Assembly (NCBI GenBank): GCA_030654225.1
Contig: JAURXY010000015.1
Location: forward strand, 397-64,396
Origin: a bacterium
GTDB taxonomy: Bacteria > Patescibacteriota > Minisyncoccia > Moranbacterales > UBA2206
Length of the DNA: 64,000 nucleotides
Direction: 5' to 3'
The notes under the pieces were generated by a model. The model did not search any database, was not told the origin of the DNA, and saw only the letters and a list, made by a program, of their open reading frames with translations. Below are positions 18,402 to 57,415 of the stretch, one piece after another (the stretch's first letter is position 1; each line of letters starts with the position of its first letter). A program made the translations under genes and the position numbers.

Positions 18402-18416
18402 ACTAACAAAAAGTCT

Positions 18417-19376: not shown

Positions 19377-19396
19377 TAATTTATAAATTTATTCTT

Positions 19397-31204: not shown

Positions 31205-31255
31205 TTTATTGATTAAGTTAATAAAGAAAGTTTTACTAAAAAAAGTATAACACAA

Positions 31256-31377: not shown

Positions 31378-31512
31378 ATGAGCATAACTTACCAACCAAA
31401 AAGTGGAAAAAGAAAAAAAAGACACGGTTTTATCGAAAGAAACAGCACTAAAAACGGAAAAGCTGTCCTAAAAAGAAGAAGACAGGCCGGTCGAAAAAAA
31501 TTATCAGTATAA
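31378..31512 (+). CDS. rpmH: 50S ribosomal protein L34.
   Basis: [44 protein letters not shown] matches the L34 consensus. This is the internal start within the longer tracked ORF. Confidence 0.85.
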
Positions 31513-31522
31513 ATATAATTTT

Positions 31523-31864: not shown

Positions 31865-31893
31865 ATAATTTTTAGTAAATTTTTAGAAAACAT

Positions 31894-35632: not shown

Positions 35633-35638
35633 TTTCTG

Positions 35639-40105: not shown

Positions 40106-40747
40106 TTATGGCAATTTCTTATAATCATTATCATCAAATTTATAATGAGTGGCACCAGCTTGGTCGCAATTTTTTTTACAGGCATTTTCATCAATAACAT
40201 TTGTAGAATTTCCCACGGATGTATATTTAGAAGAAACAACTTCGAAATTGGCACAAGAGCAAGGCATGAGATCAGAGGGCTTATTAGCGGAGCTTTGGGT
40301 GGAACACTCGAATTTGTTCCAAGCTTTTCTTTCTATATTTGTAGCTTTGGGATCGGTTATAGATTCCGGATCAGCTGAAAGAATCCACATGACACTATTT
40401 ACTATAAACCAAGCCATTAGTGTGATGGTAAAGCCCATAAGACTAGTGGTGAGAAAGGCTTTGGCGTTTTTCATCATTTCTTCTGAACCGGAAGAAATGA
40501 TATACATCACTCCCGCAATGAAAATTCCCACTGCTGCGACAGTGATAAGCAGTTTCAAACCAAAAGAAACGATATTTTGTATCCCAACGATTAGATGACA
40601 AAGAGTACAGGCGCCAGTTTGGTCACCGGCTAAATCTGCATCATCTACGCTTAGTCCGCAAGGCACAATTCCAGCACTGGCCGAAAAAATTGGCAAAAAA
40701 ATTCCCACGAATAACAAAAAAACAGCGATTTTTATTTTAGTTTGCAT
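40106..40747 (-). CDS. VirB2/TrbC-like pilin-type protein with a Cys-rich C-terminal extension.
   Basis: Signal peptide, then two hydrophobic helices separated by a short charged loop, the VirB2/TrbC topology. Confidence 0.5.
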   Translation of the reverse strand: MQTKIKIAVFLLFVGIFLPIFSASAGIVPCGLSVDDADLAGDQTGACTLCHLIVGIQNIVSFGLKLLITVAAVGIFIAGVMYIISSGSEEMMKNAKAFLTTSLMGFTITLMAWFIVNSVMWILSADPESITDPKATNIERKAWNKFECSTQSSANKPSDLMPCSCANFEVVSSKYTSVGNSTNVIDENACKKNCDQAGATHYKFDDNDYKKLP

Positions 40748-40768
40748 AATAAAATTTAAATTATTTTT

Positions 40769-41776
40769 TTATTGGCTTTTATATATGCCATTGCCTTTCC
40801 ATGCATAATGGATTGATTCATCTAACTCTCCAGGTTTGAAACAGCATTGAAAAGCTAGTGCATTGTTGCAGTCATTACTTTTGGCTAAAGATGGTAGTTT
40901 TCCTTCTGGTGTTTTTGATGTCCCGTAGCCACTATTATAGCCAGCAAAAATTTTTACAGGATCATTTTTATGATTAGATGTGTTATCTTTTATGTATTTA
41001 GCAGCTAATTCTATGGATAATCTATCATTAGATATTAAATCTTGACATGATCTTTTCGCGGTAGATGGTTTAATTTGCATTATTCCACAGGCCTTGTCGT
41101 CATTAGATAAAACCTTAGCTTTTGGATTTGTGCCACAAGATGATTCTAGCTCGGCTACGGTTCTTAATATTTCTTTTGAGATACCGCCAACATCATCAGG
41201 AATTAAACTTTTGCAAACAGAACTAGCGCTCGTTGCTGGTGATTTAGAGAAATCAATTGGAGTTTTTGAGGTTGGATCTGGACAAGCTTGATTATAACCA
41301 GCATATTTACTTGGTCCTGTGGTTTTATCATCAGTTCCGGTTATTGCAGATGATGGTGTGGATGTGATGCCTTGCAATGGTTTGAATTGTACCAGTTCTG
41401 GATTGATTGTGTAGAGTAAAACATAAGAAACTAGAGCTAGAATTAGTCCGGCGATGGCGTCGGTGATGATTCCTTTGGCTTTTCCGGTTTGGGAGTTGTT
41501 GCCGGCAGAAGTGAGATACATATATCCGCCAATCATAATCATAAACATTGCGGAAGTGCCAATCGCCCAAAGTCCGAATTTGTATATACTCATCAGATAG
41601 GCTGGAAAATCAGCCGGATCTTCAAATCCCGGAATTTTTTCCATTGGAACATATGTATCTGCAGCCAAGCAAAAAACAGGAATCAAATTAACCAGTAATA
41701 AAAGCAGAAAGATTATTTTTGTTTTTGTTATTTTCATTTTGTTTTTTAAAAAATGGGTGAATCTAATCTTCTTCAC
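40769..41776 (-). CDS. VirB2/TrbC-like pilin module fused to a VirB1-like lytic transglycosylase (SLT) domain.
   Basis: N-terminus: signal plus two-helix pilin topology. C-terminus: the SLT motifs ES (AELESSCG), GIMQI and AGYNSGYG. Confidence 0.6.
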   Translation of the reverse strand: MKKIRFTHFLKNKMKITKTKIIFLLLLLVNLIPVFCLAADTYVPMEKIPGFEDPADFPAYLMSIYKFGLWAIGTSAMFMIMIGGYMYLTSAGNNSQTGKAKGIITDAIAGLILALVSYVLLYTINPELVQFKPLQGITSTPSSAITGTDDKTTGPSKYAGYNQACPDPTSKTPIDFSKSPATSASSVCKSLIPDDVGGISKEILRTVAELESSCGTNPKAKVLSNDDKACGIMQIKPSTAKRSCQDLISNDRLSIELAAKYIKDNTSNHKNDPVKIFAGYNSGYGTSKTPEGKLPSLAKSNDCNNALAFQCCFKPGELDESIHYAWKGNGIYKSQ

Positions 41777-44636
41777 GATAATTAATTTGTGGAGTAAACG
41801 AGAAAACTATTTTAGTGACAAATAGGATTAGGGAAATTGTGAGAACTATTCGAAGGAGAAATGCAAGGTATGCAGGAGTGGAAGAATAGATAGTGGCGAA
41901 TATTTTTTTTGGTTTTATGCTACCTTCTTTTGTTTCGGGAGGATCTTGCATAGTGATGATGGCATCATCAGAAACTGCTTTTTCATAAAATTGGTTATAG
42001 GTGACGCCCCAAATAGCACTCAGCGCTTTTTTGACTAAATTATTTTGCGTGTAGAGTGTGCCAACTGATATGTTATAACTTTCGCCTTGTTTTTCCTTGG
42101 ACTTTAAAGTCAAGATGCCAGCATCGTCAATCTTGAATCCATACACATTGGCATTGGCAGAATTTATCGAATCACCATCAATTTCCCAGTTCAAATTTTC
42201 CGGCGAAACGGGAAATCCATTCGTGGTAGCTTGTAATTTTATTTTGGAATTAGTGTAGGCCCAAAAATTAAGGAGGCTGTAGTCAGGGAATGATTCGCCA
42301 TTAACATCAAAATATTGCCCCAAAACTGTTTGCTTGCAAACTGTTTCATCGGCTGAGCGGATGGTAATTTCTGGATCGACTACTTGAAAATTTCTGCTAA
42401 TATTTATTTTTTTACCAGCTTTATTAGTGGCAATTAGGTTCACGGCATATTGTTCGCCAACTTCTTTGAGAATTGGAAAATAGGCAACATTAATTTGTTT
42501 GTTTAAATTTTCGTCTTCTTCTCCTTCTGATTTACACCCTTCGAAAAAACAATACTGATAGGTAAAAGGCTTGCCATCGATTGTCCAGAGAAAGTCAGGA
42601 TCGGTTTTATCTTCAAAATGATCTTTTGGGACGGATATTGCGATAATTTGATTTTTGGTCACAGGGCAAAGAGCTTTTTCTATCGGATTTTGGTCATCAT
42701 TGCAAATTTCATCTCCTAGTCCAAGCTCAATCCCAGAGGGATTATCAGTAAGAGAGGCAGTAGAAGCTACAGCAGAAGCAATATACGCACCTATTTTTTC
42801 CGTAGTAGAACTAATGGGAATAATTATATCCTGAGTGCTTTTGCGAGGATAGTCTTCACCGGTGTTTTCCGTGACAGTAAGAACAACTTTGAGATATTTA
42901 TTGGAATAGGTAGTTGCATCTGTATCATGAAGGCCTAATTTGAATTTGAAAGTGTCAATTCCGAGACCAACAGATTGGGTTGATTCTAATAAATCAGCTT
43001 TCAAAAGAGGCTCTCCCCAGATATCAGAACTAATATCTAGAGCAGTATAAACCTTCCAATTATATTGTAGGTAGTTAGTGTCTTTGGCATTAGGAATGGA
43101 AGCATGAATAGAAAGTAAGTCACCATCCCCATCGATTCCAGTCGGATCATTTATAGGATTATTTGGAGAATAGGAGAGAGTAATGTCGAGTTTATTGCTT
43201 CCGGGGGTATTTTCTTGGGGGGAAACTAGTGAATCATATAGAAAATTATCTAAATCTCGTGGTGTCTTGACTTGGTCACCATCAATATCAATTTCAAAAT
43301 CATCAAAGGAAAAAATTTCTGGGGAATAGGTGATGACTGGATTGGGGGCTTCTTCAGTTTCAGCTACATCGGTGTCGCTTATCTCATTATCATCAGCATC
43401 TTTCACGACATTATGCATTGTGATAGTGGTTTTGATACTACCAACGCCATTGACAACATCACCATCTATTTCTTGAAGGGTTGTTTTGGTGAGAGTAGTA
43501 GTGTAAGTTCCATCATTAGTAGTAGAAATAATTTCATTACTTGTTTTTGGATATTCATCATCAGTAAAATCAGTGTCAAAATCACCTATTTTTTCATTCA
43601 TTGCCCATGTGGTTTTATAAGAAGAATCATCTGTTGCAGGTGGTTCAGTAGAAACTCCTTCTACAGCTACACCAACCTTGTCGCCTTTTTGGTAGCTCCA
43701 GGTGAAGCTAGTGACTCCTAAACCGACCACATTAGCTTCATCGGGATGACCTAAATTAGCTGTGTCGTTACTATTAGGATCAGTGTGCCAAAATTTTTCT
43801 TCATCTTTGCCGAAATCTTCATCGCCAGTTTCTTTTTCTAAATTGATTGTGTCTCCCTTATTATCAACAAAATTTTTATATTTAGCGATAGGGAATAAGT
43901 GGCTATTTTTTGTGTCAGTACAATCTAGCTCATATTCTTTGCCAGATTCTGTATTACGAATATAACAATGAGGAATTTTTCCTTTTTGGTCATCACCGCC
44001 AGAAGGGGCTTCATATCCGTCATTATCAAAAGATGATTTGTAAATATCATCAGAGCTTATCATAAATCCTCCCTTAGCGATAATCCTCGTGGCTTTTATC
44101 TTATAATCATCTATGTCAACTTCGCCATCTTTATTCAAATCGCATTTCTCAAAATCATCACTTGCTTTGTATTCTGCTGTGTATTTTTTTTTATCTAATT
44201 TTTCATCAAAACAATAGCTATTTTTTAGAAACCAAGTGTAGAATAGATCATTAGGATCATTCATGAAATATGTTGGTGAAGCAGTGACGGTTATTTTTTC
44301 TCCTTCATCTGGATTGGCAGGAACGAAAAAAAGCGAAACTTGGGGTCCAGTTTTTTTCTGATCTTCAAAGTTGATAATCTGAGCTTGCTCCCTAACCTTG
44401 TTTTTGTCCACACCCAAATCACTAAAAATAGAATCCATAAAGCTAGAGGGATTGCTGGATCCCATAACGCTTCCAACGGATGTGGCTTGAGCTATCCCAG
44501 CTTGAGAGAAAAGTAACAACCCAATAAGAAGAAAATTAATGGCTGGATTTATTTTTTTGAACTTTTTATTTTTCATTTTAGATGATAAATTATAAAACTG
44601 TCTAAAATTACGAGTGAGAACAAAGCAACAATCCAA
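41763..44636 (-). CDS. Large (957 aa) secreted surface protein with a C-terminal TM anchor.
   Basis: Signal peptide, Asp/Thr-rich extracellular repeats, C-terminal hydrophobic anchor. Confidence 0.55.
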   Translation of the reverse strand: MDCCFVLTRNFRQFYNLSSKMKNKKFKKINPAINFLLIGLLLFSQAGIAQATSVGSVMGSSNPSSFMDSIFSDLGVDKNKVREQAQIINFEDQKKTGPQVSLFFVPANPDEGEKITVTASPTYFMNDPNDLFYTWFLKNSYCFDEKLDKKKYTAEYKASDDFEKCDLNKDGEVDIDDYKIKATRIIAKGGFMISSDDIYKSSFDNDGYEAPSGGDDQKGKIPHCYIRNTESGKEYELDCTDTKNSHLFPIAKYKNFVDNKGDTINLEKETGDEDFGKDEEKFWHTDPNSNDTANLGHPDEANVVGLGVTSFTWSYQKGDKVGVAVEGVSTEPPATDDSSYKTTWAMNEKIGDFDTDFTDDEYPKTSNEIISTTNDGTYTTTLTKTTLQEIDGDVVNGVGSIKTTITMHNVVKDADDNEISDTDVAETEEAPNPVITYSPEIFSFDDFEIDIDGDQVKTPRDLDNFLYDSLVSPQENTPGSNKLDITLSYSPNNPINDPTGIDGDGDLLSIHASIPNAKDTNYLQYNWKVYTALDISSDIWGEPLLKADLLESTQSVGLGIDTFKFKLGLHDTDATTYSNKYLKVVLTVTENTGEDYPRKSTQDIIIPISSTTEKIGAYIASAVASTASLTDNPSGIELGLGDEICNDDQNPIEKALCPVTKNQIIAISVPKDHFEDKTDPDFLWTIDGKPFTYQYCFFEGCKSEGEEDENLNKQINVAYFPILKEVGEQYAVNLIATNKAGKKINISRNFQVVDPEITIRSADETVCKQTVLGQYFDVNGESFPDYSLLNFWAYTNSKIKLQATTNGFPVSPENLNWEIDGDSINSANANVYGFKIDDAGILTLKSKEKQGESYNISVGTLYTQNNLVKKALSAIWGVTYNQFYEKAVSDDAIITMQDPPETKEGSIKPKKIFATIYSSTPAYLAFLLRIVLTISLILFVTKIVFSFTPQINYREED

Positions 44637-45241
44637 GAATAGAATATGGAGCGACTCTTATATACTATTATACCAGAAAACAGAGAAATTACGAGAGTGG
44701 GTGTCATTTGCCAAAAAGAATTTCCGGTTGGGATAAGAATTAGTACAAAAAGAAAAAATTGCAAAAAAATTGAGAGTAGACCTATTTTTTTGGAAAAATA
44801 AAGCAAAATAAATCCACGCCAGAAAAACTCTTGGATAAAAACAAAAAGATTAGCAAGGATAAGTTCATAAAGCAGAAAAATCCAGAAATTATGCACAACA
44901 TAGGACGAAAGTAAATAGTTTTTTCGGAAATCTGTATAAGTATAGAGCATAAAAAAAGTCAAAAGGGTGGCCAAAAACAGCAATATTCCCCAGAAAATGC
45001 CAGCTTGTTTGTTGCCTAAGGTCAATCCAAAAGTGGAAATATTTTTTTTGAGAATAAATTTATAATAAAGAATTGGAACGATAATTAGAAAGAAAATATT
45101 TCGAGTGAGAAGTTGGGCGGAGTTTTGCACTGGGAAAAAAAGAGACAACAACAAACAAAAAACAATCACAAGAGAAGTTGTTGCGATTTCTTTATTTTCA
45201 ATTAGGCGAGTGGATAGTTTTTTTTTGTGATAATAGCGCAT
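44573..45241 (-). CDS. CPBP-family (CAAX-protease-like) intramembrane protein, tentative.
   Basis: Polytopic, with EFFWRG (the EExxxR-like motif 1) and a distal His. Confidence 0.35.
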   Translation of the reverse strand: MRYYHKKKLSTRLIENKEIATTSLVIVFCLLLSLFFPVQNSAQLLTRNIFFLIIVPILYYKFILKKNISTFGLTLGNKQAGIFWGILLFLATLLTFFMLYTYTDFRKNYLLSSYVVHNFWIFLLYELILANLFVFIQEFFWRGFILLYFSKKIGLLSIFLQFFLFVLILIPTGNSFWQMTPTLVISLFSGIIVYKSRSIFYSWIVALFSLVILDSFIIYHLK

Positions 45242-45244
45242 TGG

Positions 45245-45368
45245 TTTTTATGATTGTCATTCCTGCCCGCTTCGCCAAAGCTTCAGCGAGGCGAGCGAAA
45301 GCAGGAATCCAGTCTCAAAGTTTTAAGTTTATACACTAGATTCTCGTTTTCACGGGAATGACAGAGAT
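45245..45368. repeat. MITE-like palindromic element copy B (GTCATTCC...GCAGGAATC...ACACTAGATTCTCGTTTTCACGGGAATGACA). It is reverse-oriented and longer than copy A at 8077.
   Basis: Alignment by eye of the reverse complement against 8077-8160 shows shared termini and the CGTGAAAACG(G/A)G core. Confidence 0.55.
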
Positions 45369-45369
45369 T

Positions 45370-45870
45370 TTACGCATAGCCTTGCTCAATTTTTTGAGCG
45401 TTCTGTTTTCTTTTTTTCAAGACTGTGAGATATATCATTGTCACAAGACCCATAGTTGCTGGCAAAAAACTTATCCCAGGGAGAATTTCCACCGCTGTTC
45501 CTCCGAAAAGCATTAGTAATATATTTATCCCTCCACCTCCACCCATAGAAACTCCAATCATTACCATAAATCCAATAAAGATAAAAATCAAAATAGTCAT
45601 TATGATTACCAAGGCATAACCTACTCCTGTCGCTTGGAAAAGATCTAATATGTCCTTTAGTCCTGCAGCAATGAAAGCAATGGCAAAAACCGGATCGGAT
45701 TTTTTGATTTGAGAAAACCGAGAAGTTTTCTTGGCGGGTTTTTGAGGGGCATTATCAACAGGTGGAACAGTTTTTTTGGCTTGTTCTTTTTCCTCAACTT
45801 TTTTTTGCTGGTCTTTTTGTTTAGCATCCTCTAATTCTTGTTGTTTTTGTGGGTCGTAATTCATAATCAA
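45370..45870 (-). CDS. Membrane protein with a Gly-rich loop, hypothetical (inside the T4SS-like island).
   Basis: 166-aa ORF with a charged N-terminus followed by TM helices. Confidence 0.45.
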   Translation of the reverse strand: MIMNYDPQKQQELEDAKQKDQQKKVEEKEQAKKTVPPVDNAPQKPAKKTSRFSQIKKSDPVFAIAFIAAGLKDILDLFQATGVGYALVIIMTILIFIFIGFMVMIGVSMGGGGGINILLMLFGGTAVEILPGISFLPATMGLVTMIYLTVLKKRKQNAQKIEQGYA

Positions 45871-45955
45871 TATTCAATAAACAATGAGCAAAGATCAATA
45901 ATACGAATAATTATCTAGCTTATTTATTGTTCATTGTTCATTGATCCTTGTTTTT

Positions 45956-47779
45956 TTATTCTTCATTAAATTCTTTCTTGGCTCTTTCAATTTCCAGCAT
46001 TTGCGCTGGATCAGTGGTGATTATCTGGTCTTCCGAATAGGAGGCTACCACTTTAATTGCCACATGATTGGTGCCGGCGAAAAAAATTCCTTCTCCAACA
46101 TTAGATTCAAGAAGCAGAAATTTTTCTTGATCAGTAAGATAGAATGTTTCACTGATAACATCCACGGCTGCAGGCGATTGTTTCAAAAGCAGTTGAATGG
46201 AGGAATTGGTGACAATAGCTTTGCCATAGCGGGAGCTCAAAAAGTCGTTGACATCCTGAGTGACGGTGGTGAGTCCCGTATAATATTTTCGACAACGCTT
46301 AGCAATTCCAAAAAGAAAAGAAGCGGCGTCATCATATTTCATCATCACCCAAGCTTCATCAGCCAGAACTAATCTTTTTTTGAGGTTAGTGCGCATTTCA
46401 TTCCAAATAAATTGCATCACCATATACATAGCAATTGGCCTGAGTTCTTCTTCCATATCGCGAATGTTGAAAACCATCATTGGATTGTCTACCACAACAT
46501 TGGTAATGTTATTTAGAAAACCGGAAAAAATTCCTTCAGTATATTTTTCCATTCTAATGGCTAAATTTTCTCCACCATCCATACTGCGCAAAATTTGGTA
46601 TAGATCAGACATAGTTGGATAGGCTTCTTTGGTGAGAGAGTTGAAATTAGTTTCGGCGGAAATATCTCGAACAGCATATGTTTCCTTGATGGCTCGTCCA
46701 AGAATTGAATCTTCTTCTGGTGTGATGTTGCCGAGCATGATGTGGAGTAGTCCAAGAAGATTGGCAATGTTATTGCGCAATACATCTTCTGGATCTTCAT
46801 CTTCTTTGATGTGCGGAAGGTCGAAAGGATTGATGTGATTGTTAGAGTTAAGAGAGATTTTTATGAAAGTTCCGCCCACTGTGTCACAAAGATGTTTATA
46901 TTCATTTTCTGGATCAATAATAATCACATCAGTTCCCATCATAAGAGATCGAAGCACTTCCAGTTTTATAGTATAACTTTTTCCAGCGCCAGACTTGGCA
47001 AAAACAACCATATTGGCATTTTCCATTTTGAAACGATCAAAAATGATCAAGCTATTGTTATGGCGATTTATTCCATAAAGAATTCCTTCGTTGGAAGACA
47101 GTGTGGAAGAAACAAAAGGAAAAGTCGTAGAAAGCGGAGCGCTGTTCATACTAGATCCTATGTCCAGTTCATCATTGGCCAATGGCAATGTTGAATTGAA
47201 ACCTTGTTCAGATTTGAAGATAGCAGGTTTCACATAGACTAGTTGAGCTTCCAAAATAGCTTCAATTGAACGAGTGATATCAGAAAGTTCTTTTTCGTTT
47301 TCGCCGTAAGCGGTGATATAGAGTCCAAAGCGGAAAAATTTTTCTGTGCCTTGTTGCAGATTGCTTCGTAGTTCATCAATGTCTTGAATGGCAGTTTCAA
47401 GAGCGGGATCACGAATCATACCTTTTTCTTGTTCGATATGAATTTGTGATTCAACTCGGGTGGCATTTTTTTTGAGATCTTTCAAAATATCATAAGTTTC
47501 AATCGGGTGGACAAACATTGAGATATCGATTGGCAAATCGATATTAATAATTGGAGAAAACCAATTGCTATTGAGAAAGCGTGGATAAGCCACCACAAAA
47601 ATAGTTTGTGCCAATGTTTCTCCGACACGAATGAATTTTGGCATTATTTTTATCGCAGCGGGAGCCAGAAGGTCATTGAGACGCGAAACGCCTTCTTGAT
47701 AGTATTTTTCACCCTCAAGAATCTCGTTGGTTTTAACGGGCGGTTTGGGGTTGGTATTTTTTTTGAATAGGTGGAACAT
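45956..47779 (-). CDS. VirB4/TrbE-family type IV secretion ATPase (ATPase domain).
   Basis: Walker A FAKSGAGKSYT and Walker B LVLADEAWVMM, with overall VirB4 C-terminal layout. Confidence 0.8.
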   Translation of the reverse strand: MFHLFKKNTNPKPPVKTNEILEGEKYYQEGVSRLNDLLAPAAIKIMPKFIRVGETLAQTIFVVAYPRFLNSNWFSPIINIDLPIDISMFVHPIETYDILKDLKKNATRVESQIHIEQEKGMIRDPALETAIQDIDELRSNLQQGTEKFFRFGLYITAYGENEKELSDITRSIEAILEAQLVYVKPAIFKSEQGFNSTLPLANDELDIGSSMNSAPLSTTFPFVSSTLSSNEGILYGINRHNNSLIIFDRFKMENANMVVFAKSGAGKSYTIKLEVLRSLMMGTDVIIIDPENEYKHLCDTVGGTFIKISLNSNNHINPFDLPHIKEDEDPEDVLRNNIANLLGLLHIMLGNITPEEDSILGRAIKETYAVRDISAETNFNSLTKEAYPTMSDLYQILRSMDGGENLAIRMEKYTEGIFSGFLNNITNVVVDNPMMVFNIRDMEEELRPIAMYMVMQFIWNEMRTNLKKRLVLADEAWVMMKYDDAASFLFGIAKRCRKYYTGLTTVTQDVNDFLSSRYGKAIVTNSSIQLLLKQSPAAVDVISETFYLTDQEKFLLLESNVGEGIFFAGTNHVAIKVVASYSEDQIITTDPAQMLEIERAKKEFNEE

Positions 47780-47783
47780 AGAC

Positions 47784-48485
47784 TTATTGTAATTCTAATT
47801 TTTCTACATTTTTTAACTCTGACGCGTTGAAAATTTCTGGGTTGTATGAATTGAAAAGCAGTTCAATGAGTTCTTCGGTTTTGAGTGGAGCGATGCGCAA
47901 ACCAATTCCAGAAAGAGCGGCGATGATGTGATCAACTCTTTGAAGAAGTTGATTTTTGTAGGTTTCAAAATTTTCATTTTTTTCGATGATATTTTTTTGC
48001 GGATTCATTAGACTGCCAATGTTTGAGAAAAATCCCTTTTCTTTATTTTCAATGGGAGAAAATGGAATGATAATATAAAAATTCTTTTCCATAATATTGG
48101 AACCACTCACGAGTTGTTCGATGAAACTTCTATATTCAGATAATTGCAAACGAAGAAGTTCACTCGGTTGGGTTTTTTCTTTGCTCACAATGAAATCGAA
48201 ATATTTTCGCATATCTAGTTTTCGCGAGCTCACAAGTATTTGTACTGGAAAATCTACAGAGTTCAAGAAGTTTTGATATTGATTGATGATTGCTTCTTGT
48301 TCTTGGGTTGATTTCAAATCAAAGTTAATTGCCGACACAGCCAAAACAGAGCGCATAGCGCCTGATTTCAAAATAACTGTGTCATCTTTGACTTCTGCCA
48401 CATCCAGATATTTTTGAGTTGGCGAAGAGGACGGTTCGGTAGAGAGTTTTTTTGAGTGTAAAAATTCCATAGTATCAATAATCAA
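47784..48485 (-). CDS. VirB4 N-terminal-domain-like protein. It ends 4 nt before the ATPase ORF starts, so VirB4 is either split or frameshifted.
   Basis: Adjacency and combined length (233+607 aa is about the size of full VirB4). Confidence 0.45.
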   Translation of the reverse strand: MIIDTMEFLHSKKLSTEPSSSPTQKYLDVAEVKDDTVILKSGAMRSVLAVSAINFDLKSTQEQEAIINQYQNFLNSVDFPVQILVSSRKLDMRKYFDFIVSKEKTQPSELLRLQLSEYRSFIEQLVSGSNIMEKNFYIIIPFSPIENKEKGFFSNIGSLMNPQKNIIEKNENFETYKNQLLQRVDHIIAALSGIGLRIAPLKTEELIELLFNSYNPEIFNASELKNVEKLELQ

Positions 48486-48540
48486 TAATCAAAGAACAAC
48501 AATCAATGATCAATAAATACAAAATAAAAAAATTCTGTCT

Positions 48541-48993
48541 TTATTGTTCATTGTTCATTGATCCTTGTTCTCTGTTTAATCTTTTTGTTAATTCTTCTAT
48601 TTTTTTATTATCTAAAACTTTTCTTTTGACAATAGTTTCTTCTTTAGGTTTTTGGATTTTCTTGTTTGCTTTCATATTATCATAATATCGTTTCCAAACA
48701 TAGACCTTAGGTTTCATAAAAAAGTTTACTCCGGACATTAGAAAGTTGAGAAGTGGTTGATTGTATGGTTTGTAGAAAGCTAGGGCGCCAAAAATTCCCA
48801 AAGTGATAATGGCTACGGGAAGAAAAGTAGAAAAAACCAAAGTACTCCAAAAAATCAAAAGCAAAACCCCGGCAATTCCAAGCCAGCCAAGTTGTTTGGC
48901 AGTGAGCGGACCGACGATCTTATCTTCGATGTCGATGAATTGTGGGACGTTAAACAACATAATCAATGAGCAATGAACAATGATCAATATCAC
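48541..48993 (-). CDS. VirB3-like small membrane protein.
   Basis: About 150 aa with two TM helices, located immediately upstream of VirB4. Confidence 0.45.
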   Translation of the reverse strand: MILIIVHCSLIMLFNVPQFIDIEDKIVGPLTAKQLGWLGIAGVLLLIFWSTLVFSTFLPVAIITLGIFGALAFYKPYNQPLLNFLMSGVNFFMKPKVYVWKRYYDNMKANKKIQKPKEETIVKRKVLDNKKIEELTKRLNREQGSMNNEQ

Positions 48994-49382
48994 GATTCAT
49001 TACTGGGTTTATTATTAATAGTGTTTATACTGGACCAAAGCATTTTGCTTACTTCTTCAGCATTATTATAAAAATCCATATAATCTTCTTTATTTATGTA
49101 ATTTCTCTTATACGCGAAATATATTTGGTATTTTGCTTCAGCACATGATCCGTAGGCAATTTCTAATTGATTTAGAAATACTTTGCTTCTGTTTCTAGAA
49201 TATCCCTCAATAATATTTGATGGGACTGAAATTAGGGCTCTTCTGACTTGAGAAGTTAGGCAATATAATTCTTCTTTTGGAAATTTATATGTCAGATCAT
49301 AACCCTTGTGCGCCAACGCATCAGCTTTTCTTTTTAGAATATCTTTATCTCTTATTGTATTTTTTGTGTCTATATTGTTCAT
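48990..49382 (-). CDS. Four-helix-bundle protein (the family often found in 23S rRNA intervening sequences).
   Basis: LTSQVRRALISVPSNIIEGYSR matches the family signature (LTSQ.RRA..SI..NIAEG). Confidence 0.7.
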   Translation of the reverse strand: MNNIDTKNTIRDKDILKRKADALAHKGYDLTYKFPKEELYCLTSQVRRALISVPSNIIEGYSRNRSKVFLNQLEIAYGSCAEAKYQIYFAYKRNYINKEDYMDFYNNAEEVSKMLWSSINTINNKPSNES

Positions 49383-49392
49383 TGCTCGTTGA

Positions 49393-50754
49393 TTATTGAT
49401 CCTTGAGGTTGACTATATTCCCCGGTGGAACGTTGCTGTTTCGCAGATTTTGTGAGGAAATGCGCATTGGTTGCGGACTCGGAACTGGTTTTTGGGGTTG
49501 TTGAATTGGCTGAGGTTGAATCGTTTGTTTTTCATATGGCAATTTTTGCGGAGAGCTGAAATTTATATTGCCTGCATTTCTATTTTCTGTGGCTAATCTT
49601 TCTTCTTTGAAAATATCATTCGGTTTTGTTTCTTGTTTTTGAAAATTATAAACTTCTTGGATATTTCTTTGCGGTGCTTGGAATTGCGGATTATTTATTA
49701 TTGTTCCTTGTTCATTGATTCTTGTTTCATGTTTCGGAAAAACAATTTGCTTAGTATTGACATTAACATCCACGAGTGAATTTTCATCATAAGCTTTCAA
49801 AAGAAAAGAAATTTTTTCGCGGTCAGTTGAATTTAGGACTTTGGCATTTTCATTGCGAAAAAGATATGTTCCGCGATCCATAGCGCTGTGTGATTCAAAT
49901 CCCAAACTAAATGTATAATCTGAAAGCCAATTGTTGATTGATGGTCGCACAGGTTCTGGAAAATTTTTGAGTTTGATGCGCATTGAGGTGATAAGTTGTT
50001 CGCCGAGTTCGGGAAATTTTTTGAGAGCGTCGGAAAGGGAAAGTTGTTCTATTCTTGATTGCTCTTGTTGATTATATGGATTGTATTCTTGCGGAATATA
50101 ATTATGTAGAGTTTGAGGTTGTGGAGATAAATTATTTTGTGATAACTCTGCTTCGGAAGGTGAAAAACTTAGAATTTCATCAAGAACTGGCCCAGTAGCT
50201 GGTAATGTAGTGATAAGTAAATAATCATAAGTATGAATCAATTCTTTTAGTTGGCTTTTTTCAATAGGATTTAGTGTCGTGGCATTTCGATTTGTGTTTA
50301 CAAAATCAACGCAAGCAGATAAATTTCTAGTTTTGACATTATAATTCTTTTCAAATTCAGTTAACCATTGTGAGACTGTAAGAAGCCCAAGTTTTTGTTG
50401 ATTTTCCATAAGTGCTCGCTTGAGTTTTTCTCGAAGTTCGTCACGAGGAATTTCTGGCACAGAAAAAAGTTTCACAGTTAATCTATTTTCCATATCAATT
50501 TCAATTCTATATGATTCCAAATAATAATTGCGAAATACATTAACCACTTCTTCATCAGACAATTGAGGAATAGCGACAATCTTTAGATGGATTAATAATC
50601 TTTGTAATTGTTGAAATAAAGGAGGATTATTTTTTTGAATATCTGGAGACATTAAAAAACTTTCTAATTCTTTGATTAGTTTTTTTGCTACTACATCATC
50701 ATAATGACGAATAGCATCTTGAGATTTTTCTAAAAATTGATTTGAAAAATTCAT
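49393..50754 (-). CDS. Gln/Pro-rich hypothetical protein (T4SS-like island).
   Basis: 453-aa ORF with a low-complexity P/Q-rich C-terminus. Confidence 0.5.
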   Translation of the reverse strand: MNFSNQFLEKSQDAIRHYDDVVAKKLIKELESFLMSPDIQKNNPPLFQQLQRLLIHLKIVAIPQLSDEEVVNVFRNYYLESYRIEIDMENRLTVKLFSVPEIPRDELREKLKRALMENQQKLGLLTVSQWLTEFEKNYNVKTRNLSACVDFVNTNRNATTLNPIEKSQLKELIHTYDYLLITTLPATGPVLDEILSFSPSEAELSQNNLSPQPQTLHNYIPQEYNPYNQQEQSRIEQLSLSDALKKFPELGEQLITSMRIKLKNFPEPVRPSINNWLSDYTFSLGFESHSAMDRGTYLFRNENAKVLNSTDREKISFLLKAYDENSLVDVNVNTKQIVFPKHETRINEQGTIINNPQFQAPQRNIQEVYNFQKQETKPNDIFKEERLATENRNAGNINFSSPQKLPYEKQTIQPQPIQQPQKPVPSPQPMRISSQNLRNSNVPPGNIVNLKDQ

Positions 50755-50772
50755 TTTATATTTGTATATAAA

Positions 50773-53055
50773 TTAGCCCTTTTTAATTCTATCCGCTTGT
50801 GCACGTACTGGATCCATTCCTTTTCTTTCTCTTACTCTATCGGCGAATTCTCTGATTATTTTAGCTTGTTCTGGATTCGCTTTTACTGCTGGTATTTCTG
50901 GAGTTGTTGCTGTTGCTGCTACTATGGGTGTGCCAGCTTCAATTTTGTTTGCATATATATCTATAGCTTCAACTTGAGTTATTAATCCGTCAAAAAAGTC
51001 ATCTCGTACTCGATTTAATTGATCAAGAACGGCCGTATTTAGTTGCTCTAATTGAATTTCTCCAAACCTATGAAGTTTGCCAGCATTACCATCAGTATCC
51101 TGTTGAAGAAATGAATTCCAATGCCATAAGTCAGTTTTTGTTTGCGCTTTAATGTTCTTTGCTTTTCCACGAGATAATTCTATTTGTTTATCATCAGATG
51201 TTTCGGCATAATTTCCTTTTGCATCGATTGCACTCATGCCATATAATTGATAATTTCCTTTTCCATAAGCGATTTCTCCCATATCTGCAATGTGTTTGCC
51301 AGCTTCTGATTCTTGCATTCCAACTTTCTTAAGTCTTTTAAATAATTCTCTTTTTAATTCAAATGGATCCATAACAAATCCTTCTTCCTTGGAAAAAGAA
51401 TTAAATTCATTGGTTTTGGCGATAATTCTAAGCATAGCTGCCATCTTTTCTTTGTCTTTGGCTTTTTCAGCCATTTTATATTCTCCATAGATATAAGCGA
51501 AATCAGTACTCACTGCTTCGGCATCTTTTTCATGCTGAGCAACCAATGATTGAATAGCTGCTTCGCCGTGTCTGGATTGGCGGTTCATCCATTTTTTTGG
51601 ATTTACTGTCCAAAATCTATTGAGAGTATCTCTCCAATTGCCAGTTGCCGGCCCAAAAGCTTTTTTGTCCAATTCTTCTTCTCTTTGTTTCCAAGCAGTC
51701 TTTAGTGCTGTTGGACTAAGATATTGCAATGGGCGAAAGATTTTATTTTTTGATCTTCCAGTGCTAGCCAATCCTCTATCTGCTTTATGACCAAGCCATT
51801 TTGCAGTTCCCTTCATAAACCCTTGCGCTTTGCCGACGACGGCGCTTCCGGCTGAGCCACTCATTTCTTTAGCAATGCCTAAACCTATCCAGAGGATTAT
51901 AATAGGAAGGAAAAAAAAGGCAAGCGTGGCAATGTACTCTGGATCGGAGGTACTCTTATTAGCTAAGGTTTCCATATCTAAAATTCCATTTTTTTGAATT
52001 TCATTCATAAGGGAAGATGCAATATACATCATAAAAAGCATAATCGGACCAAAAAAAGAATAATCAAAAAGTTTTTTCCACCAATCGCTAGAATGTTTAG
52101 CCAGTGGCGGAACGGCAGCACCTACAAAGGCTAATGAAGAAAAAATAATTAAAACTGCCAAGGCGAGAGTGCGGATGACAAAAAGAACGGAAATAGTCAA
52201 CATAGTCACCATAAAGATGAAGACAAAAACGACCGCTGCCAAAAGACTAGCCGTATCTTTTCCTACTGCTGGATGCATTATGCCTGGCAAATTAGAAATA
52301 CTGGCAAAGCTAACAAAAGTATCTACTTTATTAGAGCCTATTTCTAGGACAGTGACAAAGTAATACATCAGCATATTAGAAGTATCAATGATGAAACGAG
52401 AAATTGGAAAACTGAAATTAACTAGAAGTGCCATAAGGACAATCTTTAAAAGTGTATTTTTGTAGTTATATTTGTCAATTTGAAAAACAGTAGCAAAAGC
52501 AGAAAAAAGCAGGAACATAATGAAAGAAACATTAAGTGCATCGCGCACCAATGCCCAACCACCATAAATAGCCTCACTACTAAGAATAGAACTGATACTA
52601 TTGGGTTCCATTATCCATTTAAAAAGAGCGCCAGCTAAAATTGTTAGCCGTACAAAAAATTCTAAAAGAGTAAGGAGGGTGCAGTCTATAGGGTCAAATA
52701 CAAAAGAACAGGAGGTGGAATTTCCAGGGTCTTTAACTACTGTTTGAGTTTTTTGATCAGTAGTGTTAGTTTTTTGATTAACTGGATTCCATATCATATC
52801 TCCACCGCCATGATTTGATTGTGATATTGTGGCTGCAGCTATACAAGCACTTTTTGTCATAGTTCCTAAATTATCATCAACTGTTAACGGTAATCCTGAG
52901 GCTGCATCAAATTCTGTGTATCGATTATAACATAAGCCAAGAGTAGTATCATCTTCCTCCGCCTCCGCCTTCTCCCCTTTCCCAAACCCAAAACCAAGCA
53001 CTAGGCAAAAAATAATTACTAATATAAATTTGGTTGTTGTTGATTTTTGTTTCAT
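50773..53055 (-). CDS. VirB6/TrbL-like polytopic membrane protein with a large C-terminal cytoplasmic domain.
   Basis: Signal peptide, extracellular Cys-containing segment, at least 6 TM helices, then a roughly 300-aa soluble tail. Confidence 0.5.
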   Translation of the reverse strand: MKQKSTTTKFILVIIFCLVLGFGFGKGEKAEAEEDDTTLGLCYNRYTEFDAASGLPLTVDDNLGTMTKSACIAAATISQSNHGGGDMIWNPVNQKTNTTDQKTQTVVKDPGNSTSCSFVFDPIDCTLLTLLEFFVRLTILAGALFKWIMEPNSISSILSSEAIYGGWALVRDALNVSFIMFLLFSAFATVFQIDKYNYKNTLLKIVLMALLVNFSFPISRFIIDTSNMLMYYFVTVLEIGSNKVDTFVSFASISNLPGIMHPAVGKDTASLLAAVVFVFIFMVTMLTISVLFVIRTLALAVLIIFSSLAFVGAAVPPLAKHSSDWWKKLFDYSFFGPIMLFMMYIASSLMNEIQKNGILDMETLANKSTSDPEYIATLAFFFLPIIILWIGLGIAKEMSGSAGSAVVGKAQGFMKGTAKWLGHKADRGLASTGRSKNKIFRPLQYLSPTALKTAWKQREEELDKKAFGPATGNWRDTLNRFWTVNPKKWMNRQSRHGEAAIQSLVAQHEKDAEAVSTDFAYIYGEYKMAEKAKDKEKMAAMLRIIAKTNEFNSFSKEEGFVMDPFELKRELFKRLKKVGMQESEAGKHIADMGEIAYGKGNYQLYGMSAIDAKGNYAETSDDKQIELSRGKAKNIKAQTKTDLWHWNSFLQQDTDGNAGKLHRFGEIQLEQLNTAVLDQLNRVRDDFFDGLITQVEAIDIYANKIEAGTPIVAATATTPEIPAVKANPEQAKIIREFADRVRERKGMDPVRAQADRIKKG

Positions 53056-53157
53056 AGTAGCGATGCGAATAATGCGAATAACATGCGAATGATGCGAAAT
53101 TGATTAGCGATGCGAATGATGCGAACTGCATGCGAATACCGCGAATGGTTAGGATGA
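53050..53157. repeat. Array of about 8 ATGCGAAT-type repeats at 9-11-bp spacing.
   Basis: gcgATGCGAATaATGCGAATaacATGCGAATgATGCGAAattgattagcgATGCGAATgATGCGAActgcATGCGAATaccGCGAAT read directly. Confidence 0.7.
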
Positions 53158-53541
53158 TTAGACTTTACTGTTGATGACTCGTTTGGGTTTTAAATAGGAT
53201 TCTCTGAAATTAATAAGCAAACCTAATTTTAATTTTGATGAAACTAAATATCTTTGCATTTGTCCATAGTCTTCTTTGGTGATAAACTTTTTTGCCTTAA
53301 AATCAATTAATAATTTTTCTTCGATTATAAAATCTACTATATTACCATTGATATCATTATTTTCTAATTTATTTAGTGCAAATTCCCTTTTGTATTTTAT
53401 CTTTTTTTCTATCAACCATTTTTCAAATTCATCAGAGTATTGTTTTTCTTTGCAAAATCGTCCTAGTCTATCTTGAATCTTAAAACAAATCCCAACAATC
53501 TCATAACACAAATCTTTATAAATTATTTTCTCTGATTCCAT
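53158..53541 (-). CDS. GxxExxY-family protein.
   Basis: LGRF..E..Y near the N-terminus and KLGLLINF near the C-terminus fit the family. Confidence 0.65.
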   Translation of the reverse strand: MESEKIIYKDLCYEIVGICFKIQDRLGRFCKEKQYSDEFEKWLIEKKIKYKREFALNKLENNDINGNIVDFIIEEKLLIDFKAKKFITKEDYGQMQRYLVSSKLKLGLLINFRESYLKPKRVINSKV

Positions 53542-53598
53542 TTTTTTATTTTTTGTATTTTGTTCGTTGCATTCGCATGTGTTCGCATATTCGCATCG

Positions 53599-54522
53599 CT
53601 ATTGTTTGACAGCATTCACTCCAAACCTCGCGGCTGGTCCGTAGGTGGTCATAGCTTGATTGGTAGCATTGGTATATTTGGTCACGCCGGCGGTGGCCTT
53701 GGCGGTTTTGGAACGAACACTCACGAATCCTTGTGTGATAGATTGGTTGATCATTTGAGTGACCAAGGCAGTGGTTACTTCTGGGATGCTGGAGGCGGCC
53801 TGAAGAATTTTGTTGGGCATATCTTGGGCGTTAGCCATTAATTCTTTGGTCAAAATACCAGGACTTGTAGCTGTACCGGGGAAACCTTGATTGGCTATGG
53901 CTTTATTTTGAGCAGCAAATTTCTTATTTTCAAACACTCGTTGTTGTTCAGCTTGAACAGCAATCTTAAAGCTCCAAGGATTGTTGACGCCAGAAAGATA
54001 GAGCTCCATATTTTTGAAATTGCCGGTTTGAAGCATTTGCGAAGGATCACCTTCATAGGATAGTTCTGGATTCTTGGCTTTACCCAAAATTCCTGCTGCT
54101 TGTCCAAGTTGGGCACCATAGTTGGCAGGACCGGAAAATCCTTCAGTGGAATAGAGTGAAGAAGAATTTCTTCCGCGAGTCATTTGGCTGATGTAGTCAT
54201 TCATATAGAGATTGGTTTCATTCATCGGTTCATCAACAAGATATGTTTCCCAATTAATGATGAAAGTCGGCTCGCCATCGGCGCCACTTCCCGCCAGTAT
54301 ATCCACTTGCGAGTTCAACATTTTGACAGCCTGTTGCTTCAAGGTGCCAACGATAAGACCATTGACCATTTCTAGAATTTTTTGCAAACCAGATGTGATT
54401 CCGGGGTCAACTGCTGGCCAAAAAGCTGCTTGAGATTTTGGTATATTATAAAAACAAAAAACAAACAGCAAAAAACCGGATAGAACTGTTCTTTTTATAA
54501 TTTTATTTTTAGTTGAATTCAT
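53599..54522 (-). CDS. Secreted hypothetical protein (T4SS-like island).
   Basis: Signal peptide; Ala/Gln/Asn-rich. Confidence 0.5.
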   Translation of the reverse strand: MNSTKNKIIKRTVLSGFLLFVFCFYNIPKSQAAFWPAVDPGITSGLQKILEMVNGLIVGTLKQQAVKMLNSQVDILAGSGADGEPTFIINWETYLVDEPMNETNLYMNDYISQMTRGRNSSSLYSTEGFSGPANYGAQLGQAAGILGKAKNPELSYEGDPSQMLQTGNFKNMELYLSGVNNPWSFKIAVQAEQQRVFENKKFAAQNKAIANQGFPGTATSPGILTKELMANAQDMPNKILQAASSIPEVTTALVTQMINQSITQGFVSVRSKTAKATAGVTKYTNATNQAMTTYGPAARFGVNAVKQ

Positions 54523-54526
54523 AATT

Positions 54527-55582
54527 TTAGTTTCCGAAAATATCTGCGCTTATCCCTTTGTCTTCCAATTTGCTTTGCACTTCACCATAATCGACGCCGT
54601 AACTTTCCAGTTTGCTTTTTATGTTATCATAAAAACTATTCAAACTTCCCACAAAGGTTGAGATTTTGGAATAGTTGGACAAATTGGCTAATGGATCAGT
54701 TGGATCAAGTTTGATTAGATTTTTCAATTCCTGAGCATACAGTGCATATTGCAAAGCCTCTATTTGCGTATCGACCATATCCTCTGGTACGGGCACTTCT
54801 TTTAATTGTTCATAAATTTTCTTTCCGCTTTGACTCAAATCATTGAGAATATCTGGATTGCCGGAAGCAAAAGATAGTATAATTTTTTGAACAGTTTTAT
54901 CAATGATTGAAATGACATCCGTGGAAGATGTGAGGGGATCCGGTGAGTTGCTGGCAAAAATATAAAGAATGGCCACGGAGTAATTGACAGCATCTTCTCT
55001 CATTTTTTCTTGGGCTTTTTCTTTGCTCAAATTTCCATAATTTTGTTTCAAAATTTTTATCTCATCTTTGGAAATTTCTGGTAATTCACTTTTGAAATTT
55101 TCTCCATTCATAATAGAATCAAGCAGTGTTTGAATTTCTTCGGTGTCAATTTCTTGATTTTCGGCGTCACTTTGATTTGTTAGGGCGGATATTTTCTGCG
55201 CTGTTTCTTGGGTTAGGTTAGGTTTTTCTTTTAGGGTGTTTAGCGAAGCCGTGGTACTTTCTCCTTTGACGCTAGCTGTTGGTGAAACAGTTAGTTTGTC
55301 CCCAGGGGCTTTTTTTAGTGGGTCGTACCCTGCTTTGATTTCGGCGCCGTCAGAATATCCATCACCATCTGTATCTGTTTTTTTCGGATCAGTGCCATAA
55401 GTTTTTTCTTCCGCGTCGGTGAGGCCGTCTTGATCACTATCAAGAAAAATATTTTTTGTGCCATTGGAATTTTCTTGGGCAGTCACAAAAAAAGCCAAGC
55501 TCAAACACAATAAGCTCACCAAAACAATTAGGGTTGCGTTGATATTTTTTAGTTTCATAATTGCAAATAAATTATACCACAA
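54527..55582 (-). CDS. Secreted protein with thrombospondin-type-3-like calcium-binding Asp repeats.
   Basis: DSDQDGLTDAEE...DTDGDGYSDGAE repeats after a signal peptide. Confidence 0.55.
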   Translation of the reverse strand: MWYNLFAIMKLKNINATLIVLVSLLCLSLAFFVTAQENSNGTKNIFLDSDQDGLTDAEEKTYGTDPKKTDTDGDGYSDGAEIKAGYDPLKKAPGDKLTVSPTASVKGESTTASLNTLKEKPNLTQETAQKISALTNQSDAENQEIDTEEIQTLLDSIMNGENFKSELPEISKDEIKILKQNYGNLSKEKAQEKMREDAVNYSVAILYIFASNSPDPLTSSTDVISIIDKTVQKIILSFASGNPDILNDLSQSGKKIYEQLKEVPVPEDMVDTQIEALQYALYAQELKNLIKLDPTDPLANLSNYSKISTFVGSLNSFYDNIKSKLESYGVDYGEVQSKLEDKGISADIFGN

Positions 55583-55692
55583 AAAAGAAAAATTTAAAAC
55601 AAATTTTAGGGTGTGGATAAGTTTTTGTAAATATTATTGTTAATAGACTTTTTCAAAATTCTTTGCTAAATTAGGTATGTGAATACTGCCTT

Positions 55693-57330: not shown

Positions 57331-57415
57331 TATCGATGCGAACAATGCGAATTTTATGCGAATGCCACGAATTTATTTGCATCATTCGCATGTCATTCGT
57401 AGATTAGCATCGCTA
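57330..57415. repeat. ATGCGAA / TTCGCAT repeat array in inverted arrangement between convergent genes.
   Basis: gATGCGAAcaATGCGAAttttATGCGAATgccacgaat ... cATTCGCATgtCATTCGTAGattagcatcgc read directly. Confidence 0.6.

Follow-up and report, generated by a model that had tools for sequence, protein, structure and literature searches.

We characterized a minus-strand gene cluster encoding a type IV secretion system (T4SS) on a 64,000-nt stretch of DNA from a bacterium of the Moranbacterales (GTDB Patescibacteriota; GenBank assembly GCA_030654225.1, contig JAURXY010000015.1, positions 397 to 64,396 of the forward strand). This whole stretch is called the window. The cluster, whose genes are named g01 to g14 plus f383, runs from 55582 to 40106 and probably on to 38940, covering 16.6 kb. 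An earlier reading of the sequence (the original prediction) had described positions 40106-55582 as a T4SS- or pilus-like island with neither relaxase nor coupling protein, and the open reading frames (ORFs) that it noted are present where it placed them, all on the minus strand. We found that the locus is a chromosomal, relaxase-free T4SS of the Patescibacteria type, a system that has already been published, and that the locus itself is real and well conserved. Its genes, from g01 onward, are the following:

54527-55582, minus: g01, secreted protein carrying two TSP3 calcium-binding repeats of the bacterial type, first operon gene, likely ATG at 55558
53599-54522, minus: g02, 307-aa secreted or membrane-anchored protein (signal/anchor segment)
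53158-53541, minus: g03, GxxExxY / PDDEXK_3 small-gene cassette (Pfam PDDEXK_3, 2.1e-19; NCBIfam GxxExxY, 2.8e-19)
50773-53055, minus: g04, extended VirB6-family polytopic membrane protein, 760 aa
49393-50754, minus: g05, 453-aa soluble protein, Q/P-rich, no transmembrane (TM) segment, conserved core at ~228-345
48990-49382, minus: g06, four-helix-bundle (23S rRNA intervening-sequence protein / bAvd-like) cassette (23S_rRNA_IVP, 2.1e-32; TIGR02436, 3e-32)
48541-48960, minus: g07, PrgI / VirB3-like small membrane protein, likely ATG at 48960, 139 aa
47784-48470, minus: g08, TrsD-like protein corresponding to the N-terminal domain split off from VirB4, 233-aa ORF, 228 aa from its ATG
45956-47779, minus: g09, VirB4-family ATPase, 607 aa (Pfam P-loop_TraG, 3e-30; AAA_10)
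45370-45870, minus: g10, membrane protein of 166 aa, N-terminus charged, 3-4 TM helices (TM scan)
44573-45241, minus: g11, CPBP / Rce1-like fold membrane protein (Pfam Rce1-like, 1.1e-6)
41763-44576, minus: g12, surface protein of 937 aa: signal peptide, then Ig/cadherin-like beta-sandwiches in a chain, then a C-terminal TM anchor
40769-41776, minus: g13, signal peptide, VirB2-like pilin hairpin (~56-125) and SLT lytic transglycosylase domain (198-297)
40106-40747, minus: g14, VirB2-like pilin hairpin (~50-124) with a Cys-rich C-terminal extension of ~90 aa
38940-40091, minus: f383, 383-aa membrane-anchored beta-propeller, conserved last gene of the cluster

The system is defined by its motor. 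g09 matches the NCBIfam model conju_CD1110 ('VirB4-like conjugal transfer ATPase, CD1110 family') with 359.7 bits (3e-107), where 325 is the cutoff, and its best PDB sequence match is the C-terminal domain of VirB4 from Thermoanaerobacter pseudethanolicus (4AG5, 6e-50). Both motifs noted with the earlier VirB4 assignment are present, Walker A as SGAGKS at 263-268 and Walker B as LVLADE at 470-475. A HerA- or FtsK-type ATPase, the alternative raised together with that assignment, was rejected: the HerA/DUF87 match reaches only 4.9e-9, far below the VirB4 families. Outside the Candidate Phyla Radiation (CPR), the best VirB4 matches are from Firmicutes MPF_FATA conjugative plasmids and integrative and conjugative elements (ICEs), at 25-36% identity; the score against the Mbov_0397 model is 299 bits, under its curated cutoff.

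The conju_CD1110 match spans positions 186-734 of the 752-position model, and thus the model's N-terminal part is missing from g09. TrwK likewise aligns with g09 from TrwK residue 299. The adjoining ORF g08, which the original prediction missed, is separated from virB4 by a 4-nt gap and matches the NCBIfam model VirB4_plasma (Mbov_0397) at 2.6e-11 over positions 87-284 of 894, TrsD at 1.8e-7, and conju_CD1110 at 2.9e-6 over positions 21-121 of 752. Because g08 matches TrsD as well as the N-terminal regions of VirB4 models, g08 and g09 together make up a split VirB4. For comparison we used 80 loci (L001-L080) from a scan of species-representative genomes, and compared the window's proteins with them by tblastn; most of the loci are labelled Moraniibacteriota, Parcubacteria or Patescibacteria, and a number are titled 'uncultured Bdellovibrionales'. 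g08 was found in 78 of the 80 loci with a median identity of 63-67%, and its orthologue in a further locus, L081, carries PF26593 TraC-like. Directly upstream of the TrsD-like gene in 75 of the 80 loci lies g07, whose match to Pfam PrgI (2.5e-9; 38 bits, cutoff 27) bears out the proposed VirB3-like protein; its orthologues are ~131-139 aa long.

The membrane and extracellular parts of a T4SS are also encoded here. g04 starts with a signal peptide and an N-terminal region that contains Cys; its membrane domain (~120-430) has the VirB6 fold, and the helical C-terminal domain that follows (~440-760) was modelled with confidence. A K/R-rich segment behind the last TM helix suggests that this C-terminal domain is cytoplasmic. 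The fold confirms g04 as an extended member of the VirB6 channel family and supports the earlier view of the 760-aa protein as VirB6-like. g13 and g14 have the layout expected of pilins, first a signal peptide and then a hairpin of two helices. Their own matches to Pfam T4SS_pilin are below the cutoff (2.7e-4 for g13, under the gathering score, and 3.8e-4 for g14, which also matches the NCBIfam Mbov_0395 pilin-like model at 0.013). A local pilin hidden Markov model found one to three such ORFs per locus, and 57 of 62 orthologous pilin ORFs match T4SS_pilin (best 4.3e-11), so that the call of two VirB2-like pilins holds, weakly for the window's proteins (~3e-4) and firmly through their orthologues.

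The lytic transglycosylase had been proposed as a separate VirB1-like gene. The enzyme is there (Pfam SLT, 1.2e-12; motifs ELES at 209, GIMQ at 231 and GYNSG at 279), but it is the C-terminal half of the pilin protein g13, and its SLT domain would supply the VirB1 function. Among the 62 related pilin ORFs, SLT is present in 15 and SLT_3 in 7; the fusion of pilin hairpin to lytic transglycosylase is therefore recurrent. If true, such a fusion would be a new way to tether a wall-cutting enzyme at the site of assembly. In a second arrangement of the locus (L053-L076), the pilin genes lie upstream of PrgI, and one ORF per locus consists of two tandem pilin-hairpin domains (for example, L056 7690-8583 and L064 2761-3738).

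All cluster genes share the minus strand, with intergenic spacers from a 4-nt overlap to ~130 nt, a layout that fits a single operon driven from the divergent region at 55583-55692. f383 shares the strand of g14, from which 14 nt separate it, and is the next gene downstream in 39 loci; the cluster therefore probably ends at 38940. The cluster is set among the following features:

28379-29536, minus: dnaN
29825-31255, minus: dnaA
within the origin region 28379-32655, after dnaA, plus: yidC and jag
33357-38779: polysaccharide gene block (Pfam)
36388-38779, convergent with the cluster: two Wzy_C/O-antigen-ligase-like genes
55583-55692: intergenic region from which g01 and the UbiA gene diverge, possibly the operon promoter region (suggestive only)
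55693-57330, divergent from the cluster: UbiA-family prenyltransferase, 545 aa, with a long N-terminal membrane extension
57393-58217: ksgA
59240-60769: ComM/YifB Mg-chelatase-like AAA ATPase (TIGR00368, 614 bits)

The two best minus-strand sigma-70-like matches of a promoter and terminator scan fall at 55631-55603 and 55598-55571, and the match totals in this region are no higher than in shuffled sequence. We consequently claim no shared -35/-10, the check that had been suggested for the operon. The cumulative GC-skew minimum, at ~29-30 kb, adjoins dnaA and dnaN and places the start of the cluster ~8 kb from the likely origin; dnaA, dnaN, yidC and the skew minimum all lie 8-10 kb from the cluster. 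The T4SS operon lies to the right of this origin and, being on the minus strand, would be transcribed head-on to replication.

The same arrangement recurs across relatives. Roughly 40-50 species share the order ksgA, UbiA (opposite strand), g01, g02, g04, g05, g07-g14, f383 and Wzy (opposite strand), and the database gene calls at L081 show the same gene order with tight spacing. In the second arrangement, found at loci whose VirB4 is ~70% identical, the order is pilins, PrgI, TrsD-like, VirB4 and g10, with ksgA further downstream. In related species the cluster is embedded among cell-envelope synthesis genes, with the UbiA-family and Wzy_C genes as its flanks. Homologues of VirB4 at 79-100% identity number at least 120 and carry the names Candidatus Moranbacteria/Moraniibacteriota, Parcubacteria, Patescibacteria or an unspecific 'bacterium'; named taxa among its closest homologues (68-100% identity) are Moranbacteria, Parcubacteria, Paceibacteria or Patescibacteria. 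The proposed origin in the CPR agrees with the homologue labels. A Saccharibacteria origin is rejected; by these labels the organism is Candidatus Moranbacteria (Parcubacteria/Paceibacteria).

We calculated median identities to the window's proteins over the 28 loci (species) that hold all the genes. VirB4 is the most conserved at 81%, followed by the TrsD-like g08 (67%), the reference KsgA (63%), PrgI (52%), f383 (47%), g01 (45%), g11 (42%), VirB6 (40%), g05 (40%), g12 (39%), g10 (33%) and g02 (32%). The motor is more constrained than KsgA, an rRNA methyltransferase that is universal, and the surface parts evolve quickly (32-40%). The difference between 81% for VirB4 and 63% for KsgA shows purifying selection on VirB4.

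We then considered what the locus lacks. A Pfam scan of the window's ORFs of at least 100 aa, taken as genes, found no relaxase, no VirD4/TcpA coupling protein, no VirB11 and no VirB9/10, as had been read from the sequence, and no integrase; the window contains no tRNA genes. The other ORFs are housekeeping genes by Pfam (RuvB, RuvC, YebC, PBP1, thioredoxin reductase, LspA and a DksA-type protein), and the cluster's GC content (0.33-0.38) has no clear shift from the rest of the window (0.29-0.40). With no integrase, tRNA gene or GC shift, a conserved ksgA-UbiA-cluster-Wzy order and a position near dnaA, the locus is not an island, and that part of the original prediction, confronted with the same flanks in ~40-50 Moranbacteria species, has to be withdrawn.

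The same data bear on the possibility that the locus is a functional or decaying conjugative element, an ICE whose relaxase and coupling protein lie beyond the window. Its VirB4 does exceed the curated cutoff of a conjugal-transfer ATPase family, the nearest relatives outside the CPR are Firmicutes conjugative plasmids and ICEs (at 36% identity or less), and a few Patescibacteria carry relaxases (PMC12102498). However, composition is uniform, the flanks are the same across dozens of species, and VirB4 is too strongly conserved for a decaying element. PMC12102498 counts only 109 relaxases in 3,035 genomes, 15 of them near virB4, and describes type IV coupling proteins (T4CPs) as rarely nearby. 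An ordinary ICE or conjugative module is ruled out for the window, where the ORFs of at least 100 aa include no relaxase, T4CP or integrase, no tRNA gene is present and the flanks are shared with relatives; one reaching beyond it is already largely refuted and very improbable.

Seven further genes accompany the core. g01, which occupies this position in 41 of the related loci with a median identity of 45%, has an N-terminal hydrophobic segment and the anticipated TSP3 repeats (Pfam TSP3_bac, 1.2e-13), with motifs DSDQDGLTDAEE at 48 and DTDGDGYSDGAE at 70. g02 is syntenic in 41 loci at a median identity of ~32% and had no match in Pfam, NCBIfam or a PDB profile search; lying directly upstream of VirB6, it might, by position alone, occupy the VirB5 slot of classical virB operons. 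g05 is syntenic in 50 loci and had no match in Pfam, NCBIfam or PDB; its unnamed family has 1,089 cluster representatives at E<=1e-3 in a library of 1.84 billion proteins. g10, syntenic in 46 loci including the second arrangement, has an identity of ~32% there and had no significant family match in Pfam or NCBIfam. f383 matches the NCBIfam TolB propeller at 2.8e-5, and its orthologues match PD40, DUF5050 and other propeller families. When 100 orthologues of g02, g05, g10 and f383 were searched against Pfam, beta-propeller matches to f383 were the only result, and PDB sequence and profile searches with g08, g04, g02, g05 and f383 gave nothing useful.

g11 was found in 48 loci and overlaps g12 by 4 nt. 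In an alignment of its 48 orthologues no His is conserved, and EExxxR is kept partly, as QEFFWR; judged by these residues, g11 is probably not an active protease. A role for g11 as a pilin-maturing CPBP protease was accordingly set aside, the catalytic His motifs (FxxxH, HxxxN) not being conserved in those orthologues. The surface protein first given as 957 aa is a real ORF, but its likely start yields 937 aa, a length at which g12 is identical to an NCBI-annotated protein. The g12 family appears to be restricted to Moranbacteria (58 homologues, named Moranbacteria or unspecifically). Its AF2 model (pLDDT 78) is mostly beta, and Foldseek matched it to cadherins, the S-layer protein SbsB, the Ig-like domains of PrgB (8beg, 1.3e-6), SraP and an RTX adhesin, which makes g12 a candidate adhesin by its modelled fold. 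The earlier remark that most components lack an assigned role is true only in part: the 760-aa protein is an extended VirB6, the 233-aa ORF g08 is TrsD-like, and two small genes are cassettes with no relation to the T4SS.

These surface proteins raise the possibility that the apparatus is mainly an organelle of attachment, in which the cell stays on its host by means of the Ig-like adhesin and a pilus assembled by VirB4, and nothing is translocated. Pilins and the Ig-like, TSP3 and propeller proteins are indeed all conserved in the operon and fast-evolving. The operon nevertheless keeps an extended VirB6 channel subunit and a strongly conserved split VirB4, which is more than adhesion seems to need, and in Saccharibacteria it is type IV pili that inhibitor studies have implicated in host adhesion and twitching motility (PMC10633639). 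We consider a purely adhesive organelle quite unlikely.

Two genes of the cluster, g03 and g06, are inserted cassettes. The g03 region (53056-53601) is flanked by inverted ATGCGAAT/ATTCGCAT arrays that include a perfect 14-nt inverted pair (53058-53071 and 53588-53601), and g06 is bracketed by a 23-nt inverted repeat, 96% complementary (48959-48981 and 49374-49396), and its transcript is predicted to close into a long stem (z-score -2.7). GxxExxY ORFs (four) and four-helix-bundle ORFs (ten) are spread over 12 of the 80 loci (L001, L002, L008, L010, L014, L016, L018, L024, L027, L028, L052 and L080), always in the orientation of the operon; the spacer that they occupy varies but is usually g02/g04 or g05/g07. 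Among sister species, the g02/g04 spacer alone holds a GxxExxY gene in the window and L001, a four-helix-bundle gene in L002 and L018, only a 98-nt palindrome in L003, and nearly nothing in L004 (36 nt). Being sporadic among loci and variable in position, g03 and g06 were rejected as T4SS components.

By analogy, these cassettes resemble the stem-plus-ORF intervening sequences of 23S rRNA, here placed in the spacers of an mRNA. The cassettes may move between sites, and RNase III may cleave them. If true, this class of cassette would spread to both rRNA genes and operon spacers, and its presence could lead RNase III to process the operon mRNA. A broader proposal, which we regard as possible though doubtful, is that the locus is a fixed 13-gene module in which all seven unassigned genes are true parts, for structure or host recognition, and the cassettes form a class of mobile element. 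The TSP3 protein, g02 at the VirB5 position, g05, g10, an inactive CPBP scaffold, the Ig-like adhesin and the beta-propeller may then belong to a pilus-tipped conduit for feeding or injection.

From the observed identities and conservation of the parts we infer how the machine would assemble, what it would carry and in which direction. We consider it probable, with some reserve, that the locus encodes a non-conjugative pilus or conduit, powered by VirB4, for contact and exchange with a host cell. Under this mechanism the operon, vertically inherited, chromosomal and origin-proximal, would derive from monoderm MPF_FATA conjugation machinery that has been uncoupled from conjugation. PrgI/VirB3, the split VirB4 (TrsD-like protein plus ATPase) and the extended VirB6 would form the translocon and motor at the cytoplasmic membrane, while the SLT domain, tethered to its pilin-like hairpin, would open the peptidoglycan locally. 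The VirB4 motor would polymerise the VirB2-like pilins into a short pilus or conduit, and the fast-evolving surface proteins (Ig-like g12, TSP3 protein g01, g02 and beta-propeller f383) would contact the host cell. The machine would then move proteins or other molecules to or from that cell, rather than transfer a plasmid or ICE. The requirement for such a system in host-dependent growth may extend to this lineage, as suggested by a VirB4 more conserved than KsgA.

Several points weigh against this mechanism. Reviews call the role of the T4SS 'completely unknown' (PMC11665869). In Patescibacteria, VirD4 homologues are often found at a distance from virB4 (PMC12102498), and other regions of this genome could encode a T4CP or relaxase. 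The window's pilins by themselves score under the Pfam gathering cutoff, the adhesin call for g12 comes from generic Ig-like fold matches with low TM-scores, and no ORF matched the VirB8, PrgL or TcpC families in Pfam or NCBIfam, g02 and g10 being unmodelled. VirB8 is rarely detected in Patescibacteria at large (PMC12102498).

Alternatively, the machine could bring in DNA, from the host or the environment, to supply nucleotides or genes. The Helicobacter pylori ComB system works without a coupling protein, relaxase or VirB11. The set of genes here, which also lacks T4CP, relaxase and VirB11, resembles ComB, a DNA-uptake precedent cited in PMC11665869, and the archaeal Ced system offers a second model, with a weak similarity of our VirB4 to CedB (9.6e-12). 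CPR bacteria lack nucleotide synthesis (PMC11665869), and a ComM/YifB helicase gene (59240-60769) lies 3.7 kb upstream of the operon. However, the match to CedB is far weaker than that to conjugative VirB4 (3e-107), and the CedB similarity is consequently one of general family homology. The ComM gene is outside the operon, across the divergent UbiA gene and ksgA. In S. epibionticum, deletion of comEC ends competence and leaves the cells viable, but the T4SS is essential, and competence is achieved with type IV pili (PMC12857230). Uptake of DNA is thus an unlikely function of this operon, and a VirB4-powered conduit for contact and exchange remains our preferred reading.

Other features of the window stand apart from the cluster. 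ComM takes part in natural transformation in other bacteria; its gene here lies beyond UbiA, ksgA and an Rpf-like G5/DPBB protein. At 12635-13998, an AbiEii nucleotidyltransferase toxin gene (1.9e-25) and an overlapping upstream AbiEi-like antitoxin gene (weak, 4.3e-4) form a type IV toxin-antitoxin or abortive-infection pair, adjoined by a DUF4143/AAA_14 ATPase gene (11454-12581). Genes at 16240-20927 encode a 7TM_transglut membrane protein, an ATPgrasp_ST plus Zn_protease fusion, two further ATP-grasp/RimK-like ligases and a YdjC-like deacetylase, and could form a peptide- or amino-acid-ligase module. A 510-aa protein with a PKD and two lamin-tail (LTD) domains (9051-10583) is likely another surface protein.

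Patescibacteria make up an estimated quarter of bacterial diversity. Their T4SS is among the few conserved envelope machines of the group and is essential in the one species tested. The description of this apparatus as poorly characterised has been overtaken in part, since work from 2023-2025 has reported where it occurs and that it is essential in one species, and it still applies to function, which PMC12857230 and PMC11665869 give as unknown; effector delivery, uptake of nutrients or DNA, and a pilus conduit are so far speculative. The locus adds no new principle. It is a clean and strongly syntenic Moranbacteria example in which the core parts can be separated from cassettes, and its modest new points are a conserved seven-gene Moranbacteria accessory set, the recurrent pilin-SLT fusion, an extended VirB6 confirmed by its fold, an Ig-like adhesin candidate and the cassette insertions. 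The fast-evolving surface proteins are obvious candidates for host recognition. Because Moranbacteria are uncultivated, a parts list alone leaves T4SS function untestable; the list is useful for cryo-electron tomography, complex prediction and host-range comparison.

Finally, we compared the locus with known systems, beginning with the more distant ones. Relative to the R388 and Agrobacterium VirB systems (MPF_T), VirB5 is not identified here, VirB7-VirB11 and VirD4 are absent at the locus, VirB6 carries an extra C-terminal domain of ~320 aa, and the envelope is that of a monoderm. ComB shares with the locus the VirB4, VirB3 and VirB6 families and the lack of coupling protein, relaxase and VirB11, but it is a diderm system with VirB7, VirB9 and VirB10 and no TrsD split, whereas the window has no VirB9 or VirB10 family matches. 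The T4SSs of Mycoplasma and Spiroplasma ICEs come closer: the best NCBIfam match of g08 is the N-terminal region of Mbov_0397, VirB4 matches the same model, and g14 weakly matches Mbov_0395, all below the curated cutoffs. Those systems, however, reside on mobile ICEs with conjugation functions, and their VirB4 is one polypeptide.

Among MPF_FATA monoderm systems (pGO1/pSK41 TrsC-TrsD-TrsE, CTn2 CD1110, and pCF10 PrgH-PrgL and PrgB), the likeness lies in a VirB4 above the CD1110 cutoff, a pGO1-like order of VirB3-like protein, TrsD and VirB4, a split of VirB4 like that of TrsD and TrsE in pGO1, the lack of outer-membrane core proteins, and a candidate PrgB-like surface adhesin with Ig-like domains (g12). 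Unlike these conjugative systems, the locus has no relaxase, T4CP or recognised VirB8-like protein, is chromosomal and vertically inherited, and encodes VirB2-like pilins, which Gram-positive MPF_FATA systems do not have; its VirB4 is only 25-36% identical to theirs.

The closest match is the Patescibacteria clade itself. PMC12102498 (Quinonero-Coronel et al. 2025) describes, from 3,035 Patescibacteria genomes, a monophyletic VirB4 clade nested in MPF_FATA and present in 2,407 genomes. TrsD (the most abundant T4SS component in Patescibacteria), VirB3/PrgI and VirB6 adjoin VirB4 there, VirB2-like pilins are present, VirB1 is near VirB4 mainly in Paceibacteria, and the T4SS is often near dnaA, dnaN and ksgA. 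Apart from membership of the VirB4 clade, the locus has all of these features: a VirB4 with adjacent TrsD, PrgI/VirB3 and VirB6, VirB2-like pilins near virB4 in a monoderm (the monoderm envelope being taken from the literature), a VirB1-type hydrolase, neither relaxase nor T4CP nearby, and a position near dnaA, dnaN and ksgA. Its VirB4 may belong to the clade, to judge from its closest homologues. The proposed minimal VirB4-based apparatus of the CPR, with no relaxase or coupling protein nearby, matches both that account and PMC10633639 (Wang et al. 2023), which reported a homologous cluster in S. epibionticum, SEML1_0006-0019, that includes the pilins and is essential for epibiotic growth by transposon sequencing (also PMC12857230). 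Our locus differs from that cluster in its Moranbacteria lineage and in having two pilin genes in place of a six-gene array. It differs from the clade as described in that its hydrolase is fused to a pilin hairpin, that the main-text sections of PMC12102498 make no mention of g01, g02, g05, g10, g11, g12 and f383, and that g12 has the architecture of an Ig-like adhesin, where that paper reports no PrgB-type adhesin detected.

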